Below the pieces are notes generated by a model. It saw only the letters and a list, made by a program, of their open reading frames with translations. It did no database searches and was not told where the DNA came from. A stretch of 64,000 nucleotides of DNA from an uncultured Candidatus Saccharibacteria bacterium (GTDB lineage Bacteria > Patescibacteriota > Minisyncoccia > Phycocordibacterales > PALSA-1337): NCBI GenBank assembly GCA_964406895.1, contig CAYOTK010000001.1, forward strand, positions 90,697 to 154,696, read 5' to 3'. This document shows, piece after piece, positions 1 through 38,451 of the stretch. Numbering within the stretch: the first letter of the stretch is position 1; each line of letters opens with the position of its first letter. A program made the translations under genes and the position numbers.

Positions 1-730
1 TCTGAGATATCCAGCCACGGGCATTTTCTCGTTCAATGATGATTGTCTGTATGTCTTGTCTGGGTAATATCGAGAATGAACTCGTGCACACAATGACAAC
101 AGGATGTTCGGTGGTTGATATTTTATTCCAAGTATCTATTATCTTTTTTTTCGTCAGTTCGGTGTTAAGCAGGAAAATATAGCCTTCTATGCCTTTTTCG
201 AGCGCTTCATAAATATTTCTTGAATCTTCGATGGTTGGTAAATATATTGCCACGGAATTCTTCTTGGCGAATTCTTGTCGAATCAAACTTTTCCATGTAC
301 TCAATCGGTCAGAGTCATCACCTTGCACTGCATATGTTTCGGAAGTATTGATATTCGATGGGGTCTTTTTTGTTTCAGTAATATTTATTTTGCTAATATT
401 TTCTAGCAAACTATCTGTTACCAATGAATTTATGATAGAGCCGATGTTCGTAGCATAATATTCAGCCAAATATTTACATGATTCCATGAATGAATTGCTG
501 AAGAAATTCGTTCCTTTTATTTTACTCAATTTTCGTATTTCAAACGGTGCATTCCTGATTTCCGATCGTGCCTCTTCCGCAGGTCTAACTTCACTCACTA
601 TTGCATGAATATTTTTTGACCTTACTGGCACTGATACTATTGAGCCTATTTCTATATCAGAGGTTGTGAAATACGAAAGGGTTGGAGACATTTTCGCTCT
701 CGAAATTGGTATGACGGTAATGAGATTCAT
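1..730 (-). CDS. priA: Primosomal protein N' (PriA)-like, N-terminal ~243 aa; the gene continues past the window start. Helicase motif I (GxGKT) is replaced by GDDSDR and motif II (DEEH) by EREN.
   Basis: Manual translation of the reverse strand gives an uninterrupted frame from the ATG at 728-730 to position 1. N-terminal 3'-DNA-binding-like region (VSVPVRSKNIHAIV, AEYYATNIGSIINSLV) aligns with PriA. This ORF is missing from the supplied track because it runs off the window edge. Confidence 0.55.
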   Translation of the reverse strand, partial: MNLITVIPISRAKMSPTLSYFTTSDIEIGSIVSVPVRSKNIHAIVSEVRPAEEARSEIRNAPFEIRKLSKIKGTNFFSNSFMESCKYLAEYYATNIGSIINSLVTDSLLENISKINITETKKTPSNINTSETYAVQGDDSDRLSTWKSLIRQEFAKKNSVAIYLPTIEDSRNIYEALEKGIEGYIFLLNTELTKKKIIDTWNKISTTEHPVVIVCTSSFSILPRQDIQTIIIERENARGWISQ

Positions 731-2745: not shown

Positions 2746-3125
2746 ACTTCAGAATGAATACAAAAAACAAACCAAATATTCGGCCATAGCGCTTAACCTG
2801 TTTGGTTATCGTTAGAGCCGCCAAGAAGCGGTTTTGTTTTATTCAGAAAGAAAGCAATTTGAAAACCACATACCGAGAAATAAAATGTAGGTAGTTCATG
2901 TACCATATTTGCCTTGGTCGGCCGATATGAGAATGCATGAACACAAGTAAGTAAGCGGTGTACAGATTTCCTAATGGGAAATCAAGGGCGTATGGTGGAT
3001 GCCTTGGCTAGAAAAAGCGATGAAGGACGTGGCGTGGCGACGATACGCTTCGGGGAGGTGCCGAGCAACCTTTGATCCGAAGATGTCCGAATGGGGAAAC
3101 CCGATTATGTAAAACATAATTACTG

Positions 3126-3263
3126 TGTCTCGTTAGTGTTTATTATAAGCGCAAAGCTCAAAGCTCAAAGGGCAAAACTCAAAAGTAAAGGCAAAAGCTA
3201 AAAACTTTTAACCTTAAGCTTTGAATTTGAACCTTTAACCTTTTAATAAATAGTAACGAGACA
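3126..3263 (+). other. IVS-like expansion in the 23S gene at the helix-9 position. A hairpin (stem tgtctcgttag / ctaacgagaca) encloses low-complexity gcaaagctcaaag repeats.
   Basis: About 100 extra nt relative to E. coli between GGGAAACCC and GGGAACUGAAACAUC. Flanked by an 11-bp inverted repeat. Confidence 0.6.
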
Positions 3264-3591
3264 CGGAGCGTACGTTGGGAAGTAAAACATTTCAGTACCA
3301 ACAGGAATAAAAACAAAAATGCATTCCGTTAGTAGCGGCGAGCGAAAGCGGAGGAGACTAAACTTAACGTCGCAAGACGTTGAGGGTTGCAAGGCAGAGA
3401 CGTGCTATTTATAGCAGAGAAGTTACAAAATCTTTTGTTAGCAGAATGAGCTGGAAAGCTCGACCCTAGAGGGTGATAGTCCCGTAAGTTAAAACAAAAG
3501 ATCTTCTTGGTTTCTGTTCTTAAGTACCCCAGGACACGAATAGCTTGGGGGAATCTGCCGGAACTAACCGGCAAGTCTAAATATTTTTCTA

Positions 3592-3631
<40 letters not shown>

Positions 3632-4437
3632 CAGCCCGGAAGGGCGGTGAAATAGATCTGAAACCATATGCCTACAAGGAGTCAGCGCCGTTGCACCTCA
3701 TTGCATTTGCTATAGTGAAATAATCAATAACCAAGATCCAATAATCAAACTCTTATCGAGTTTTGTTTGTTGATTATTGGTGTTTGATTATTTCATGGTA
3801 TCGAATGTAACGAGGTGTAACGGTCATGGCGTGCCTATTGAAGAATGAGCCAACGAGTTTTAGCAAGCAGCTCGGCTAAGTCCGCGAGGACGGAGTCACA
3901 GGGAAACCGAGTCTGAATAGGGCGTTTGTTGTTTGCTAAAGACCCGAAGCCAGATGAGCTTGCCACGCGCAGGGTGAAGTTCGCCGAAAGGCGGATGGAG
4001 GCCCGAACCGGTTAGCCGTGCAAAACTATCGGATGACGTGTGGTAAGGAGTGATAAGCTAATCGAATCTGGTAATAGCTGGTTCTCTCCGAAAAAACTTT
4101 TGGGTTTGCGTCAGAATTACCTTCGTGGGGTAGAGCACTGGAAGGTCTCGACAGGTCGAAAGATCACGAGACCTATCAAACTCCGAATACACGAAGTAAC
4201 TATCTGGCAGTTAGACTGTGGGGGCTAAGCTCCATTGGTCAAAAGGGAAACAGCCCGGATCTCAATTTAAGGTCCCTAAATCGACGTTCAGTGCGCTTAA
4301 GGTAGTGAAAATTCTACGACAATGAGGATGTAGGCTTAGAAGCAGCCATCATTCGAAGATAGCGTAACAGCTCACTCATCGAGAAATTTCGCGCCGCAGA
4401 TAATCGGGGCTAAAATGTCGTACCGAAACTGAGGACT

Positions 4438-4683
4438 TGTAAACTACATTGAGGAAAATTTTGTTCTTTAGGTACCAGAGTAGTTCAATGGCAGAACAGC
4501 TGATTTGGTTGCGCATTGCGACCGTTTTAAGTCAGTATGTTGAAGGTTCGATTCCTTCCTCTGGTGCCAAGTAGATTTCGGTGCTCGGGTAGCACATCTC
4601 GCCAATAAAGCGAGACGGGTTAAAACCCCGCCGGGCATCAATTTCGGGGGGAACTTCGGTTCCCCTCCTCAATGTAGTTTACA
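4438..4683 (+). other. IVS in the 23S gene at the helix-45 position (E. coli ~1170). A perfect 17-bp flanking stem (tgtaaactacattgagg / cctcaatgtagtttaca) encloses a tRNA-like module.
   Basis: 23S homology stops at 4437 and resumes at 4684. The insertion is bounded by a perfect inverted repeat, as in RNase III-processed IVSs. Confidence 0.7.
4474..4569 (+). ncRNA. tRNA-like element inside the helix-45 IVS. Features: 7-bp acceptor stem (ACCAGAG/CTCTGGT), D-arm (GTTC AATGGCA GAAC), canonical T-arm (GAAGG TTCGATT CCTTC), discriminator G and an encoded CCA. The anticodon region is expanded by ~21 nt (loop-like TTTGGTT, i.e. a UGG-like anticodon, then a 21-nt insert).
   Basis: Folded by hand from the sequence. 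The GGTTCGATTCC T-loop and a 3' CCA adjacent to a complementary acceptor strand are both present. Confidence 0.5.
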
Positions 4684-5231
4684 AGTGGTAGGAGAGTATT
4701 TGCATCGCGATGAAGGTGAAGGGGTGACCCACACTGGAGCGTTGCGAAGTAAGAATGTTGGCACAAGTAACCGCAATGCGGGTGAGATACCCGCACGCCG
4801 AAAGATCAAGGTTTCCTTGGCAATGTATATCAGCCAAGGGTTAGTCGGTCCTAAGGGGATGGCGAATGCCGCACCCGATGGATACACGGTTAATATTCCG
4901 TGACTTTCATAAAAATCGATGGAGTGACGAAGTGTAGTATATTGTGCGCATAATTGGATTTGACGTTCATGTCGTAAGGATGAGTCTTGGTAAATCCGGA
5001 CTCTGCTTTTGATAGCATATCCAAGCGAAGTGAAAATTTCGAGCAATCGGGAAATACAATAAAGCACACTTCCAAGAAAAGCTTCTAAGATTATTTTTAT
5101 GAAAACCGTACCGCAAACCGACACAGGTGGTTAGGTCGAGTAGACCTAGGCGAACGAGTGAGAGGTCTCCAAGGAACTCGGCAAAAAAGCAGCCGTAACT
5201 TCGGAATAAGGCTTGCCCTCTGGATATTGGT

Positions 5232-5295
5232 CGTTAGTTTTTGGTTTTTGGTAATCGCATTTGTGATTACTAATAACTAATTACTAATTACTAAT
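5232..5295 (+). repeat. AT-rich hairpin mini-repeat (ttagtaatta family), copy A, in the 23S helix-63 variable region.
   Basis: The sequence cgttagtttttggtttttggtaatcgcatttgtgattactaataactaattactaattactaata is about 57/65 identical to the reverse complement of 6931-7015. Confidence 0.6.
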
Positions 5296-5489
5296 ACCCA
5301 GAGGGCCGCAGCTAAAGTATCTCTGGCAACTGTTTAACAAAAACACAGCTCCCTGCGAACTCGTAAGAGGAAGTATAGGGGGTGACACTTGACCAATGCG
5401 AGAAGGTCAAATAACGGCGGTGCGATTATATCAAGCTGACTGTTATAAGCCCTCGTGAATGTCGGTCGTAACTATAACGATCCTAAGGT

Positions 5490-6263
5490 TCTTGGTTTAT
5501 TCACAAGAATGAATCAAGAAGGACTGGGATCGTTATGAGATTAATTGTTAAATATAGAAAACGTATAAGGAATTAATAATGCTGCCTATCTGCGCAGAAT
5601 AAAATGCAGATGTCCTAATAAATATCTGACTATATGCTGGGAAGTCTGAGTATCTCAGGTCACTATGGTATAATTACACCATAGTAACAATACCATGAGT
5701 GCAGACAATCAGCAGGAAAGATTAAAAATTGAAAATTGGATTCTTGGTTTCACTGATGGTGAAGGATGCTTTTCGGTTAGTTTTATAAGAAATAAAACGA
5801 CGAAAACCGGATGGCAAATTTTTCCAGAGTTTGTGATTACGAAAGGAGCCAAAAGTCTGTCTGCTCTCAAAATTATCAAAAAATATTTTGGGTGTGGAAA
5901 ATTATTCGTAAACAGACGTCATGATAATCATAGGGAAAATCTATATCGTTATTGTGTTAGATCTGTTACTGAATTGGAGAAAGTTATCGTCCCATTCTTT
6001 CTAAGAAATGAACTGAAGACATTTAAAATGAATGATTTTCGATTGTTTTCGAAAATCATACTGATTATGTCTGCTGGCGATCATTTGAATATAGTGGGAA
6101 TGAATAAAATCGCCAAATTAGTAGAAAAAATGAACAGACGAAAAAAATCTCGATTTTTGAAATCCTCAGAAACCAAACGTCAGACCCTGAGCGAAGCGCG
6201 TAGCGCTGAGTCGAAGGGAAAATAGAGTTCGCGCTGCATAGCGATATGCAGATTAACAAAACG
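5490..6263 (+). mobile_element. Intron-like insertion (presumed group I) in the 23S gene at the helix-69 hotspot (E. coli ~1917), carrying a LAGLIDADG endonuclease ORF.
   Basis: 774 nt interrupt CCUAAGGU|AGCGAAAUUCC. Preceded by U and ends in G. Junction placement is ambiguous by 1 nt. The group I core was not confidently identified by eye. Confidence 0.65.
5695..6225 (+). CDS. LAGLIDADG homing endonuclease, single-motif (homodimer type), intron-encoded.
   Basis: 176 aa with motif ILGFTDGEGCFSV near the N-terminus. Lies entirely inside the 23S insertion. Confidence 0.8.
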   Translation: MSADNQQERLKIENWILGFTDGEGCFSVSFIRNKTTKTGWQIFPEFVITKGAKSLSALKIIKKYFGCGKLFVNRRHDNHRENLYRYCVRSVTELEKVIVPFFLRNELKTFKMNDFRLFSKIILIMSAGDHLNIVGMNKIAKLVEKMNRRKKSRFLKSSETKRQTLSEARSAESKGK

Positions 6264-6894
6264 TAGCGCAATTCCTTGCGGGGTAAGTTCCCGCGCGTTG
6301 AAAAGTGTAATGACTGGAGAACTGTCTCGGAGACTTGCTCGGTGAAAATACAATACCGGTGAAGATGCCGGTTACCTGCAGTTAGACGAAAAGACCCTAG
6401 AAGCTTTACTGTAATTTGGTATTGACTATACGTTTTTGATGCGTAGCGTAGACGGTAGGATTTGAAGTGTCCCTTTCGGGGGGCATGGATCCGACGATGA
6501 AACACCGTTCTTTAAGAATGTATATTCTAACCTCGGCGGTATAAACGCCGGGAGACAGTATCTGATGGACAGTTTTAGTGGGGCGCTATCCTCCTAAACA
6601 GTAACGGAGGAGCCTATTAAGTTCAGCTAGGCGCGAATGGAAACCGTGCCGATAGTGTATGGGCACAAGCTGGATTGACTGCGAGACGTACGTGTCGAGC
6701 AGATGCGAAAGCAGAGCCAAGTGATCCGACCTTACGCATTAGATGCGGGGGAAGCTCATCGGACAAAAGCTACTCTAGGGATAACAGGCTAGTTCCGCCT
6801 AAGCGTTCATAGCGACGGCGGAGTTCGGCACCTCGATGTCGGCTCACCACATCCCGGGGGTGGAGAAGCTCCCAAGGGTTTGGCTGTTCGCCAA

Positions 6895-6929
<35 letters not shown>

Positions 6930-6930
6930 A

Positions 6931-7015
6931 TTTAGTTATTAGTGATTAGTAGTTAGTTATTGGTGATCGCAAATATGATTACCTAAAACCAAGAACTAAT
7001 AACCAATAACCAAGT
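6931..7015 (+). repeat. AT-rich hairpin mini-repeat, copy B, inverted relative to copy A, at the 5' edge of the second intron. A partial third copy lies at 7099-7145.
   Basis: Reverse complement about 57/65 identical to 5232-5295. The ttagtaattagt motif recurs at 7099-7145. Confidence 0.55.
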
Positions 7016-7137
7016 AGGGCAGTCTGAATCACTTCGAGAGATAATTTTAGTAGTCTATGAAAAAGTATAGGAAATGAACAATCATATCATGGCGGTCGTT
7101 TTAGTAATTAGTCATTAGTAATTAGTGATTAGTTCTA

Positions 7138-17370: not shown

Positions 17371-17472
17371 GTGCGTTGTTACATTATTGAATATTTGCTG
17401 TGCAAACCTGAAATCAATTTCAAATTTCGTGCTTGCACTGCGAAGCTCCGAACGAAGTGAGGAGCGAAGCAG

Positions 17473-17545
17473 TGCGCGATACAGGATTCGAACCTGTGAC
17501 CCTTCCCACGTCAAGGGAATGCTCTACCAACTGAGCTAACCGCGC
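17473..17545 (-). tRNA. tRNA-Val (anticodon GAC).
   Basis: Cloverleaf: GCGCGGT acceptor, D-arm TAGCTCAGTTGGTAGAGC, anticodon stem TTCCC/GGGAA with loop TTGACGT, T-loop GGTTCGAATCC. No CCA encoded. Confidence 0.85.
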
Positions 17546-17572: not shown

Positions 17573-17691
17573 AATGCATTCTGCCAAGACAGCTAACCGC
17601 GCTTATTTAATGCATTCTACCAAAACAGCTAACCGCGCATATATTTTTAAATAACTTTCTCGATGCATTCTACCAAAACAGCTAACTGCGC
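17573..17691 (-). repeat. Three tandem copies (~27-30 nt each, ~40-50 nt period) of the 5' portion of tRNA-Val (acceptor 5' strand plus a mutated D-arm AGCTGTCTTGGCAGAA/AGCTGTTTTGGTAGAA plus GCATT), lying upstream of the gene.
   Basis: Plus-strand units aatgcattctgccaagacagctaaccgcgc, aatgcattctaccaaaacagctaaccgcgc and gatgcattctaccaaaacagctaactgcgc, compared with the genuine 5' end ggaatgctctaccaactgagctaaccgcgcg. Confidence 0.75.
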
Positions 17692-17753
17692 TTACAAATA
17701 AGATATACTAAAAAAACGACTTGCGCAACTCTTATTCATCGCTTGATTTGCTG

Positions 17754-18200: not shown

Positions 18201-18292
18201 GAGCGTATTATAACATTACGTTTCCTTATAATGAACTTTATTATTTCTGCGGAGACTTGGATTTTAGATAGTTCCTGATAAAATTAACTGTA

Positions 18293-31269: not shown

Positions 31270-32202
31270 CTATTCGAGGTCGGTCCTCAAGAAGGTCGGA
31301 CCTCCAAAAGGTCCGACCTCATCAGCGTTTTCGTACCAGGAAATCGCCTTATTTCTCTTGAACCAAGTCATTTGTCTTTTTGCATAATGTTTGATCTCCA
31401 TTTCCAGTTCGGCGATCATTTGTTCCAAGGTTAGTTTGTTTTGTAAATGTCTCGCCATGTATCTGTATTCTAGGCCCAGTTCTTCCATTCTCTCAAAACT
31501 CAAACCTCTATTATGTAAATCTATCGCTTCGTTCAGCATTCCTTCATTCAGGCGATTTATTAGTCGAGCATGAATTCGCTGGTGCAATATTTCTTTCGGA
31601 GGATTGATGCCTATGAATACTGGCTCAAAAATAAACTCCAGCTGAGTCGTAGTCTCATGAGTTTTTTCTCCTGACTCTATTTCTATTGCCCGAATAAGTC
31701 TACGAGCATTTTTTCTGTCGGACTCATTCATGGTCTCGGCGCGGTTGATGTTTAAACTCTTTAATAGCTGAAATAATTCATCGACATTTTTCGTTTTTAG
31801 ACTGGCCCTCAATTCTTCATCGGCTCCAACTTCAGGCAGGTTTGTATTGTTTATGAATGAATCAATATAAAATCCGGTTCCTCCACACAGAATCGGAACC
31901 TTATTGTGTTTAATAATTTCCTTTACTGCCTCAGTCGCAAGTTTTCTGAATAGCGTGACCGTGAATCTATCCTGCGGATCCGCAACATCAAGCAAATAGT
32001 GTTTTACACCTTGCATTTCTTCGTTTGTGATTTTGCCAGTCCCAATATTCAAGCCTCTATAAACTTGTCTTGAATCAGCAGATATCACTTCTCCATTTAT
32101 TTCTTTTGCGATTCTAACAGCAAGGTCGCTTTTTCCAGAAGCGGTTGGGCCGAGAATGACTATAATTCTCACATTATTTATTTTTAGTGATGAATCTTTC
32201 AT
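31270..32202 (-). CDS. miaA: tRNA dimethylallyltransferase.
   Basis: ILGPTASGKSDLAV P-loop and DSRQVYRGLNIGTGK motif. The 3' end carries an embedded palindromic repeat. Confidence 0.85.
   Translation of the reverse strand: MKDSSLKINNVRIIVILGPTASGKSDLAVRIAKEINGEVISADSRQVYRGLNIGTGKITNEEMQGVKHYLLDVADPQDRFTVTLFRKLATEAVKEIIKHNKVPILCGGTGFYIDSFINNTNLPEVGADEELRASLKTKNVDELFQLLKSLNINRAETMNESDRKNARRLIRAIEIESGEKTHETTTQLEFIFEPVFIGINPPKEILHQRIHARLINRLNEGMLNEAIDLHNRGLSFERMEELGLEYRYMARHLQNKLTLEQMIAELEMEIKHYAKRQMTWFKRNKAISWYENADEVGPFGGPTFLRTDLE
31272..31322. repeat. GC-rich palindromic (REP-like) element with GAGGTCGGACC units, embedded in the last 17 codons of miaA.
   Basis: gaggtcggtcctcaagaaggtcggacctccaaaaggtccgacctc. 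The same unit family occurs at 46527-46559. Confidence 0.6.
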
Positions 32203-38089: not shown

Positions 38090-38230
38090 GCCAAGGTAAG
38101 CTGTCTTGGCAGAAATCATTTAAAATTATCATATACCGCCAAGGTAAGCTGTCTTGGCAGAAATCATTTAAAATTATCATATACTGCCAAGGTAGCTGTC
38201 TTGGTAGAAATCATTTAAAATTGTAATAGA
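38090..38230 (+). repeat. Three tandem ~47-nt units upstream of tRNA-Phe. Each unit is the tRNA 5' fragment (GCCAAGGTA + mutated D-arm AGCTGTCTTGGCAGAA + ATCATT) plus an AT-rich TAAAATTATCATATA tail. Each unit reads as a -35-like TTGGCA/TTGGTA, a 17-nt spacer and a -10-like TCATAT/TAATAG.
   Basis: Units at 38090-38135, 38136-38183 and 38184-38230 are near-identical. The last ends 2 nt before the tRNA. Confidence 0.8.
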
Positions 38231-38232
38231 CC

Positions 38233-38308
38233 GCCAAGGTAGCTCAGTTGGTAGAGCATTCCCCTGAAGAGGGAAGGGTCACCAGTTCGATCCTGGTCCT
38301 TGGCACCA
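38233..38308 (+). tRNA. tRNA-Phe (anticodon GAA) with encoded CCA.
   Basis: GCCAAGG acceptor, D-arm TAGCTCAGTTGGTAGAGC, anticodon loop CTGAAGA, T-arm ACCAGTTCGATCCTGGT, followed by ACCA. Confidence 0.9.
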
Positions 38309-38445
38309 AAACGATTCAATATAAATACTGCGATTTACTGCGGGATGGGGTAACATTCGATCCTGGTCCTTGGCACCAAATTACTCAAAATCATATCGCG
38401 CAAATTGCGGGATGGGGTAACATTCGATCCTGGTCCTTGGCACCA
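38309..38445 (+). repeat. Two tandem ~67-nt units downstream of tRNA-Phe, each ending in a copy of the tRNA 3' portion (GGGGTAACA-TTCGATCCTGGTCCTTGGCACCA).
   Basis: 38347-38378 and 38414-38445 reproduce the T-loop 3' half plus acceptor 3' strand plus ACCA exactly. Each is preceded by a small hairpin (cgcaaattgcg-like). The array abuts the stop of the 1351-aa gene. Confidence 0.8.
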
Positions 38446-38451
38446 AATTAA

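Follow-up and report, generated by a model that had tools for sequence, protein, structure and literature searches.

In Escherichia coli, the tyrT gene is followed by 178-bp repeats that include the terminal ~19 nt of tRNA-Tyr and are not known to act as promoters. Eukaryotic RNA polymerase III uses the A-box, an internal promoter that lies inside the functional gene and is read by TFIIIC. The stable-RNA genes of E. coli are preceded by tandem promoters (rrn P1/P2) which, to our knowledge, are not gene-derived repeats. Native tandem promoters have been described (PMC8830795), as have extended -10 (TGn/TRTG) sigma-70 promoters, with their T-17 G-16 T-15 G-14 motif (PMC6212719), and transcription starts about 7 nt downstream of the -10 hexamer (PMC12641261). 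In the plastids of Douglas-fir and Vandenboschia, the trnY repeats are partial duplications of a tRNA gene, for which a regulatory role has been speculated (PMC3098776). Tandem promoters of stable RNAs, extended -10 promoters and partial tRNA gene duplications are, therefore, already known. What we did not find described in full-text searches of the literature is the stereotyped rewriting, throughout a lineage, of the 5' segment of a tRNA gene into promoter-like cassettes that form tandem, strain-variable arrays beside that same gene.

The case described here is an array of tRNA-Val(GAC) 5' fragments located upstream of that gene in the window, that is, the whole 64-kb stretch of DNA that was analysed. 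It resembles the E. coli stable-RNA tandem promoters in that co-oriented candidate promoters are stacked before a highly expressed RNA gene, and in the GC-containing, discriminator-like sequence (GCA here) that follows the -10. In contrast to them, the units here are 35-57 nt apart, originate from the very gene that they precede, lack a -35 and differ in number from strain to strain. With extended -10 sigma-70 promoters it shares the TG at -15/-14 and, in Val copies 1 and 2, the TAnnnT hexamer, and it would likewise not require a -35, although many members of the family break the T-12 and T-7 rules. Like the plastid trnY repeats, these are hypervariable tandem arrays of short tRNA pieces adjoining the parent tRNA. 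The trnY repeats, which belong to another kingdom and genome type, copy the anticodon arm and show no stereotyped rewrite into a promoter consensus, whereas the modules here copy the 5' acceptor strand and the D-arm. The E. coli tyrT repeats are likewise tandem repeats with a terminal tRNA fragment beside the gene, but they are 3' fragments placed downstream, whereas the Val modules are 5' fragments placed upstream; their close counterpart in the window is another repeat, at 38286-38450. The A-box shares with the modules a D-arm sequence that doubles as a promoter element, but it is internal, whereas the D-arm of the modules is a mutated duplicate placed ahead of the gene, where a bacterial sigma factor would recognise it.

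Direct reading of the minus strand bore out the three 5' copies that the initial annotation had placed upstream of tRNA-Val(GAC), each of them corresponding to nucleotides 1-27 of the tRNA with an altered D-arm. Copy 1 (GCGCAGTTAGCTGTTTTGGTAGAATGCAT) spans positions 17663-17691, copy 2 (GCGCGGTTAGCTGTTTTGGTAGAATGCAT) 17610-17638 and copy 3 (GCGCGGTTAGCTGTCTTGGCAGAATGCAT) 17574-17602, all on the minus strand. The genuine tRNA-Val(GAC), detected by ARAGORN and Rfam at 17472-17545 (minus strand), gave rise to the fragments and is the gene that the modules presumably serve. The Val-specific acceptor strand attributed to all three copies is exact in copies 2 and 3, which open with GCGCGGT, while copy 1 has a single acceptor mismatch (A for G) that the annotation's consensus had missed. 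Tandem Repeats Finder reported the array with a 36-nt period and 90% matches; the units are arranged head-to-tail, with high identity and with copy-number and indel polymorphism among strains, as is characteristic of tandem repeats produced by slippage or unequal recombination, and the spacers (7-28 nt) contain no ORFs. Neither the Val fragments nor those of the tRNA-Phe array described below were called as tRNAs by ARAGORN or Rfam RF00005, which called only the genuine genes.

Within the Val array, a sequence fitting the extended -10 pattern TGnTAnAAT (TGGTAGAAT) is found in copy 1 (17667-17675, minus strand), with copy 2 lying 28 nt downstream, and in copy 2 (17614-17622, minus strand), with copy 3 lying 11 nt downstream. 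Copy 3 carries a deviant form (TGGCAGAAT; 17578-17586, minus strand) with C at -12, 32 nt upstream of the tRNA +1. The Val hexamers have the orientation of the tRNA, and 11-32 nt separate the end of each from the fragment that follows or from the tRNA +1.

A second array, identified by Tandem Repeats Finder and direct reading, precedes the genuine tRNA-Phe(GAA) (38233-38308, plus strand; ARAGORN and Rfam) and consists of three 48-nt units at 38090-38232 (plus strand). Its fragments (AGCTGTCTTGGYAGAAATCAT), located at 38090-38119, 38138-38167 and 38186-38214 on the same strand, represent a variant with A at -7 that we call class A. Their core, AGCTGTCTTGGYAGAA, is the same as that of the Val copies, and the D-arm variant claimed to be common to both arrays is indeed present in all six fragments as AGCTGTYTTGGYAGAA. 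These six (three Val and three Phe) are the only exact matches to AGCTGTYTTGGYAGAA in the window, compared to 0.08 expected by shuffling, and the observed count was reached in none of 100 shuffles. When up to two mismatches were allowed, no further sites were found within the 64-kb window except two weak matches. The identity of the genuine Val and Phe tRNAs in their D-arm (TAGCTCAGTTGGTAGAGCA) and anticodon stem (TTCCC/GGGAA), also stated previously, was confirmed. The check proposed in the initial annotation, whether the motif is tRNA-derived or generic, favours a derivation from tRNA, as the motif occurs in the window only at the two tRNA loci and is unrelated to the 23S rRNA promoter. The latter is a canonical TTGACA-16-TATACT, at about 2711-2738, and the idea that the motif is a generic stable-RNA promoter was rejected, since that promoter lacks it.

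The two genuine tRNAs, at 17472-17545 (minus strand) and 38233-38308 (plus strand), also have the variable loop GGGTCAC in common, and their anticodons are one base apart; in the relative L186, the anticodon stem of Val(GAC) differs from that in the window. One of the two tRNAs may have been remodelled from the other. Downstream of tRNA-Phe, 2.4 tandem 67-nt units (38286-38450, plus strand) each contain a 3' tRNA fragment (GGGATGGGGTAACATTCGATCCTGGTCCTTGGCACCA), approximately tRNA-Phe positions 39-76 with a disrupted T-stem, and extend to the stop codon of a convergent 1351-aa gene. Such 3'-fragment repeats were not seen at the Phe loci L120, L129 and L142.

Compared with the genuine tRNA-Val sequence (GCGCGGTTAGCTCAGTTGGTAGA--GCATTCCC), the D-arm of the fragments has undergone two changes. 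C13-A14-G15 is replaced by GTT or GTC (GTY), and a 2-nt insertion (AT) in the 3' strand of the D-stem turns GAGCA into GAATGCA. The rewrite converts TTGGTAGAGCA into TTGGTAGAATGCA, that is, TGnTAGAAT. The tRNA D-arm TTGGTAGAGC departs from the extended -10 consensus at its last positions only; the insertion yields TTGGTAGAAT (TGG + TAGAAT), and the CAG to GTY change puts T at -17/-18. The latter change may have arisen through loss of CA and expansion of the T-run. An origin of GTC from a quasi-palindrome or hairpin was rejected, given that the GCCAAGG-TCTTGGC pairing exists in tRNA-Phe only and not in the other tRNAs.

The initial annotation had interpreted the variant as a conversion of the D-loop to TTGGCA, acting as a -35 element. 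This part did not survive, since TTGGTA, found in most copies, is unchanged tRNA sequence and TTGGCA is a minority variant. Moreover, in the arrays with 35-38-nt units (L161, L158), a -10 located 17 nt past TTGGYA would lie within the next unit's acceptor strand, so TTGGCA cannot be a -35; a scan for classical -35/-10 pairs at the Val array found nothing.

The sequence produced by the rewrite corresponds to the dominant promoter type of the window, the extended -10. The density of TGnTAnAAT is 5.6 times higher in intergenic than in genic sequence, and the pattern lies 6-7 nt before many start codons, including those at 18215 and 37640 on the minus strand and 32977, 19968 and 26731 on the plus strand. 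This spacing leaves no room for a Shine-Dalgarno sequence and suggests that leaderless mRNAs, produced from extended -10 promoters without a -35, are widespread in the window. The promoter-zone/genic count ratio, taken over 17 related loci, was 0.121 for TGnTAnnnT, whereas it dropped to 0.015-0.021 with any other base at -7 and to 0.016 with C at -12. Native extended -10 sites are enriched in T at -17 (0.51 vs 0.30) and -18 (0.49 vs 0.36) and depleted in G at both positions. The CAG to GTY change, thus, shifts -17 and -18 toward the native T preference, although the G that it places at -19 is not a preferred base at these sites. A protein gene in L161 is preceded by TTTTTGGTAGAGT, followed by 6 nt and the ATG, and appears to be driven by it; as TTTTTGGTAGAGT occupies that position, the real D-arm is one base away from an apparent promoter sequence. 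Fragment-free tRNAs in the same contigs have TGnTAnnnT 8-10 nt before their +1. A TATCTT hexamer located 8 nt upstream of Val copy 1 (17700-17705, minus strand) may be the original tRNA-Val promoter, since its distance is the canonical one at these fragment-free tRNAs.

Measured against this local pattern, the modules are uneven. The hexamer is preceded by TGG, which provides the TG at -15/-14, in six out of six copies in the window. The hexamer itself (TAnnnT) is an exact TAGAAT in Val copies 1 and 2, CAGAAT in Val copy 3 and CAGAAA or TAGAAA in the Phe array, where A occupies -7 throughout and C occupies -12 in copies 1-2. About half of the motif instances deviate at -12 or -7, the positions that native promoters conserve most: C at -12 is found in Val copy 3 and at several other loci, and A at -7 (class A, YAGAAAT) in the whole Phe array and at many loci. 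By this genome's own statistics such forms would be expected to be weak or dead promoters, and a weak promoter is predicted for Val copy 3. Deviant forms persist nonetheless, as in the class-A Phe fragments of the window and L177 and in a block present in L123, L131 and L141 (see below). In the short-unit arrays, the end of the hexamer is 10 nt (L161), 11 nt (window Val), 13 nt (L158) and 16 nt (L173) from the next +1, a spacing compatible with a start site ~7 nt downstream. Among other promoter types considered, opposite-strand promoters were rejected as a general explanation, as TGATAATTT, found on the minus strand of the Phe spacers, has no equivalent in the short-unit arrays. Sigma-54, LexA-like and palindrome readings were discarded by inspection, their spacing being unsuited.

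The module layout consists of a few flank bases, the acceptor strand of the module's own tRNA and AGCTGTYTTGGYAGAA; with one to four such units in tandem, it recurs at some 15 separate loci from metagenomes and genomes. It accompanies six tRNA species (Phe-GAA, Val-GAC, Val-TAC, Thr-TGT, Met-CAT and Lys-TTT), all of which have the D-arm TAGCTCAGTTGGTAGAGCA, while no upstream copies were found at ~20 tRNAs with other D-arms in the same contigs. The base that follows GCA, at tRNA position 27, is T in Phe and Val-GAC, A in Thr and Val-TAC, C in Met and G in Lys; it is always that of the module's own tRNA, and each fragment, therefore, derives from the neighbouring tRNA.

We retrieved 57 metagenome loci in a scan with a 20-nt motif. 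In 21 of them (~14 after merging duplicate or near-identical contigs), the motif lies directly 3' of a copy of the downstream tRNA's acceptor strand; the others comprise 14 chance matches in one conserved coding gene and a scattered remainder, and three of the 57 have the motif without any tRNA piece. The matches listed from a scan of one genome per species were mostly due to chance, but two Saccharibacteria genomes, L033 (tRNA-Phe) and L066 (tRNA-Lys), share the architecture. The collection scans fixed most motif positions, AGCTGT included, so that per-position conservation estimated from them is biased. The LigA protein of L158 has its best named matches in Parcubacteria/Paceibacterota, and the small ORF and TsaD of the window match proteins named Patescibacteria or Parcubacteria. 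The module family spans Saccharibacteria and Parcubacteria-like bacteria and is widespread in Patescibacteria. The presence of the same module at many tRNA loci elsewhere upholds the earlier view that the Val and Phe arrays result from one process and not from separate accidents.

The arrays differ between close strains. Two strain-level relatives, L188 and L190, have a TsaD that belongs to the 90%-identity cluster of the window's TsaD (via member P0207). Over about 170 nt of tRNA and downstream sequence, they differ from the window by 2 mismatches. Their array, compared to that of the window, has lost 27 nt of copy 1, motif included, has a copy 2 spacer that is 21 nt longer and shows redistributed T/C states at GTY and YAGAAT. 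Similarly, L126 has two copies, and the near-identical L137 has one. In L177 (small ORF 93% identical in amino acids), the Phe fragment equals that of the window except for the additional A present in window copies 1-2. The L177 spacer is unrelated to the window's, and the contig stops within the array. L149 and L164 retain an intact motif beside a decayed acceptor part. In L186 (TsaD 62% identity), GCGCGGA is followed by TGCTAATTT, 8 nt and tRNA-Val, an element that looks like a decayed module retaining the putative promoter alone.

An unbiased sample of tRNA-Phe loci, obtained through the conserved small ORF, contained fragments at one of the seven loci (L177), while none were found at the tRNA-Phe of L178, L180, L182, L191, L201 and L202; in the TsaD-neighbourhood sample, L185 had no tRNA. 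L173 and L191 have the same tRNA-Phe and a similar upstream ORF end, and differ in the presence of fragments. The class-T Phe fragments of L120, L129, L162 and L173 have GCATCG after the motif in common, which hints at common descent followed by frequent loss.

Contigs of close relatives break at the array or the tRNA: L177 ends in the array, and L184 and L189 start inside the tRNA. Arrays are, therefore, probably under-represented in MAGs. In L194 (~974-1030), a member of the L191 group, 27 nt are missing, from the acceptor strand and CCA at the tRNA-Phe 3' end into the bases just downstream. The contig is otherwise identical to the others of its group, and its tRNA-Phe is no longer called by ARAGORN. 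Either the tRNA-Phe of this strain is broken or the deletion is an artefact of assembly.

Among the readings considered, a promoter role is the best-supported function. We consider it likely that the modules act as extended -10 promoters, with a probability of about 0.5, because Val copies 1-2 fit, while Val copy 3 and the Phe copies look weak; that most of the sampled relatives do without fragments also speaks against such a role. The promoter hypothesis put forward in the initial annotation is partly supported, but the element would be the extended -10 (TGGTAGAAT) instead of a TTGGCA -35. In the mechanism that we propose, the 5' end of the tRNA gene (a few flank bases and nucleotides 1-27) has been partially duplicated in tandem, and the universal D-arm TAGCTCAGTTGGTAGAGCA has been rewritten, in a stereotyped way, into what would be an extended -10 promoter without a -35. 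The universal D-arm TTGGTAGAGC needs one or two mutations to reach the extended -10 consensus, which would make such a conversion possible. Transcription would start ~7 nt downstream of each module and read into the next unit or the tRNA, and RNase P would remove the resulting fragment-containing leader. The array would, hence, be a stack of extra promoters that raises the output of a single-copy tRNA gene, tuned by copy number. More tentatively, Patescibacteria might repeatedly have turned the first 27 nt of single-copy tRNA genes into promoter cassettes, whose arrays would grow, shrink and alternate, from strain to strain, between strong (TAGAAT) and weak (CAGAAT, TAGAAAT) forms. They would then constitute a heritable rheostat of tRNA supply in genomes unable to afford gene duplication. 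In a still bolder form of this idea, the conserved block, of 16-24 nt, would be read by a factor dedicated to tRNA genes.

The variation of copy number and spacers among strains would also be expected if the fragments were non-functional by-products. Slippage or unequal recombination would duplicate tRNA gene ends, gene conversion would match the acceptor strands, and the copies would drift and often be lost. Truncated or dead copies exist (L188 copy 1, L142), fragments are absent from most of the sampled relatives, the 3'-fragment repeats downstream of tRNA-Phe suggest a general tendency of tRNA ends to duplicate, and partial tRNA duplications are known from plastids (PMC3098776). However, drift predicts neither that one and the same multi-base change should affect the D-arm of six tRNA species, from Saccharibacteria to Parcubacteria, nor that this change should land on the local promoter consensus. 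Streamlined genomes should, moreover, easily delete useless arrays by recombination between the repeats, and we regard this explanation as unlikely. Alternatively, the block AGCTGTYTTGGYAGAA(A/T) could be bound by a sequence-specific factor, for instance one that regulates the transcription or processing of tRNAs, or by a non-standard sigma, its likeness to a -10 being secondary. This would account for the maintenance of the motif in forms that break the local -10 rules (C at -12, A at -7) and for its AGCTGT part, which has no explanation by -10 function, although the search patterns forced the conservation of AGCTGT. It would also account for a 24-nt class-A block, AAGCTGTCTTGGTAGAAATCATAA, that is identical in L123 (~466-489, plus strand), L131 (minus strand) and L141 (minus strand) despite diverged flanks, with no tRNA acceptor copy beside it and a related element, CTGCTTCGCAGAAATTA, nearby. 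Against it, the motif is weakly palindromic and, in the common TTGGTAGAA form, no longer palindromic, the two best Val copies are perfect promoter matches, and we know of no candidate protein. We consider such a factor unlikely.

Since the fragments are co-oriented with the tRNA, any upstream promoter would transcribe them, and they could function in the pre-tRNA leader as a signal for processing, as a decoy of the acceptor strand or through a structure that influences RNase P cleavage. The Phe array is more stably folded than shuffled sequences (z = -3.76), because GCCAAGG of the acceptor pairs with UCUUGGC of the variant loop, and the C/T variation at Y would keep a G-C or G-U pair with G13. 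The Val array, on the other hand, is no more structured than its shuffles (z = 0.11), a single unit is less stable than its shuffles, and the stem that could form has just 3 bp. Pairing at Phe is, furthermore, tied to the Phe acceptor sequence and absent at the Val, Thr, Met and Lys loci, and Rfam returned no match at the Val array at E <= 5 besides the tRNA itself and noise. A role in the leader RNA is, thus, very unlikely. Integrative elements create direct repeats of tRNA gene fragments, and the fragments might be seen as att-site scars of tRNA-targeting integrases. Yet the spacers (7-50 nt) contain neither ORFs nor mobile-element content, the fragments are 5' pieces that include upstream flank, the units within an array are near-identical, and the acceptor strand is always that of the adjacent tRNA. 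The motif had no match in 2.9 million viral contigs and no inserted element is present at Val, so that an origin in phages or integrative elements is effectively refuted, and att scars are scarcely credible.

If the modules are promoters, as we favour, they are a clear and repeated example of a gene that generates its own promoter by duplicating part of itself, in which a universally conserved structural RNA sequence, the D-arm, would serve as a ready-made proto-promoter. They would explain how tRNA dosage is adjusted in the ultra-small genomes of Patescibacteria, with one gene per tRNA, and would provide a simple sequence signature to locate promoters in an uncultivated phylum, as well as a strain-variable marker. 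In practice, the arrays apparently break metagenome assemblies (L177, L184 and L189) and could be misread as tRNA pseudogenes or integration scars.

Other repeats and tRNA-like sequences were observed in the course of the analysis. The contigs L123, L131 and L141 are AT-rich (GC about 30%), and a related repeated element, ATACCTGCTTCGCAGAAATTAAGAA, lies ~75 nt upstream of their 24-nt block and again downstream; no Rfam family matched at the block. In the window, the 23S rRNA match (2972-7054, plus strand) covers 4083 nt against a 2925-nt model, with ~1.1 kb of insertions, and its span also holds several 7-nt tandem repeats. It includes a 93-nt tRNA-like sequence (4474-4566, plus strand) that scores 58.5 bits with the Rfam tRNA model, has a 25-nt insertion in the anticodon loop and is not called by ARAGORN. 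Finally, three imperfect copies of GAGGTCGGACC, direct and inverted, are located between the end of the upstream gene and tRNA-Trp (31277-31321, minus strand). They are probably terminator-type hairpins, unrelated to the tRNA-fragment modules.
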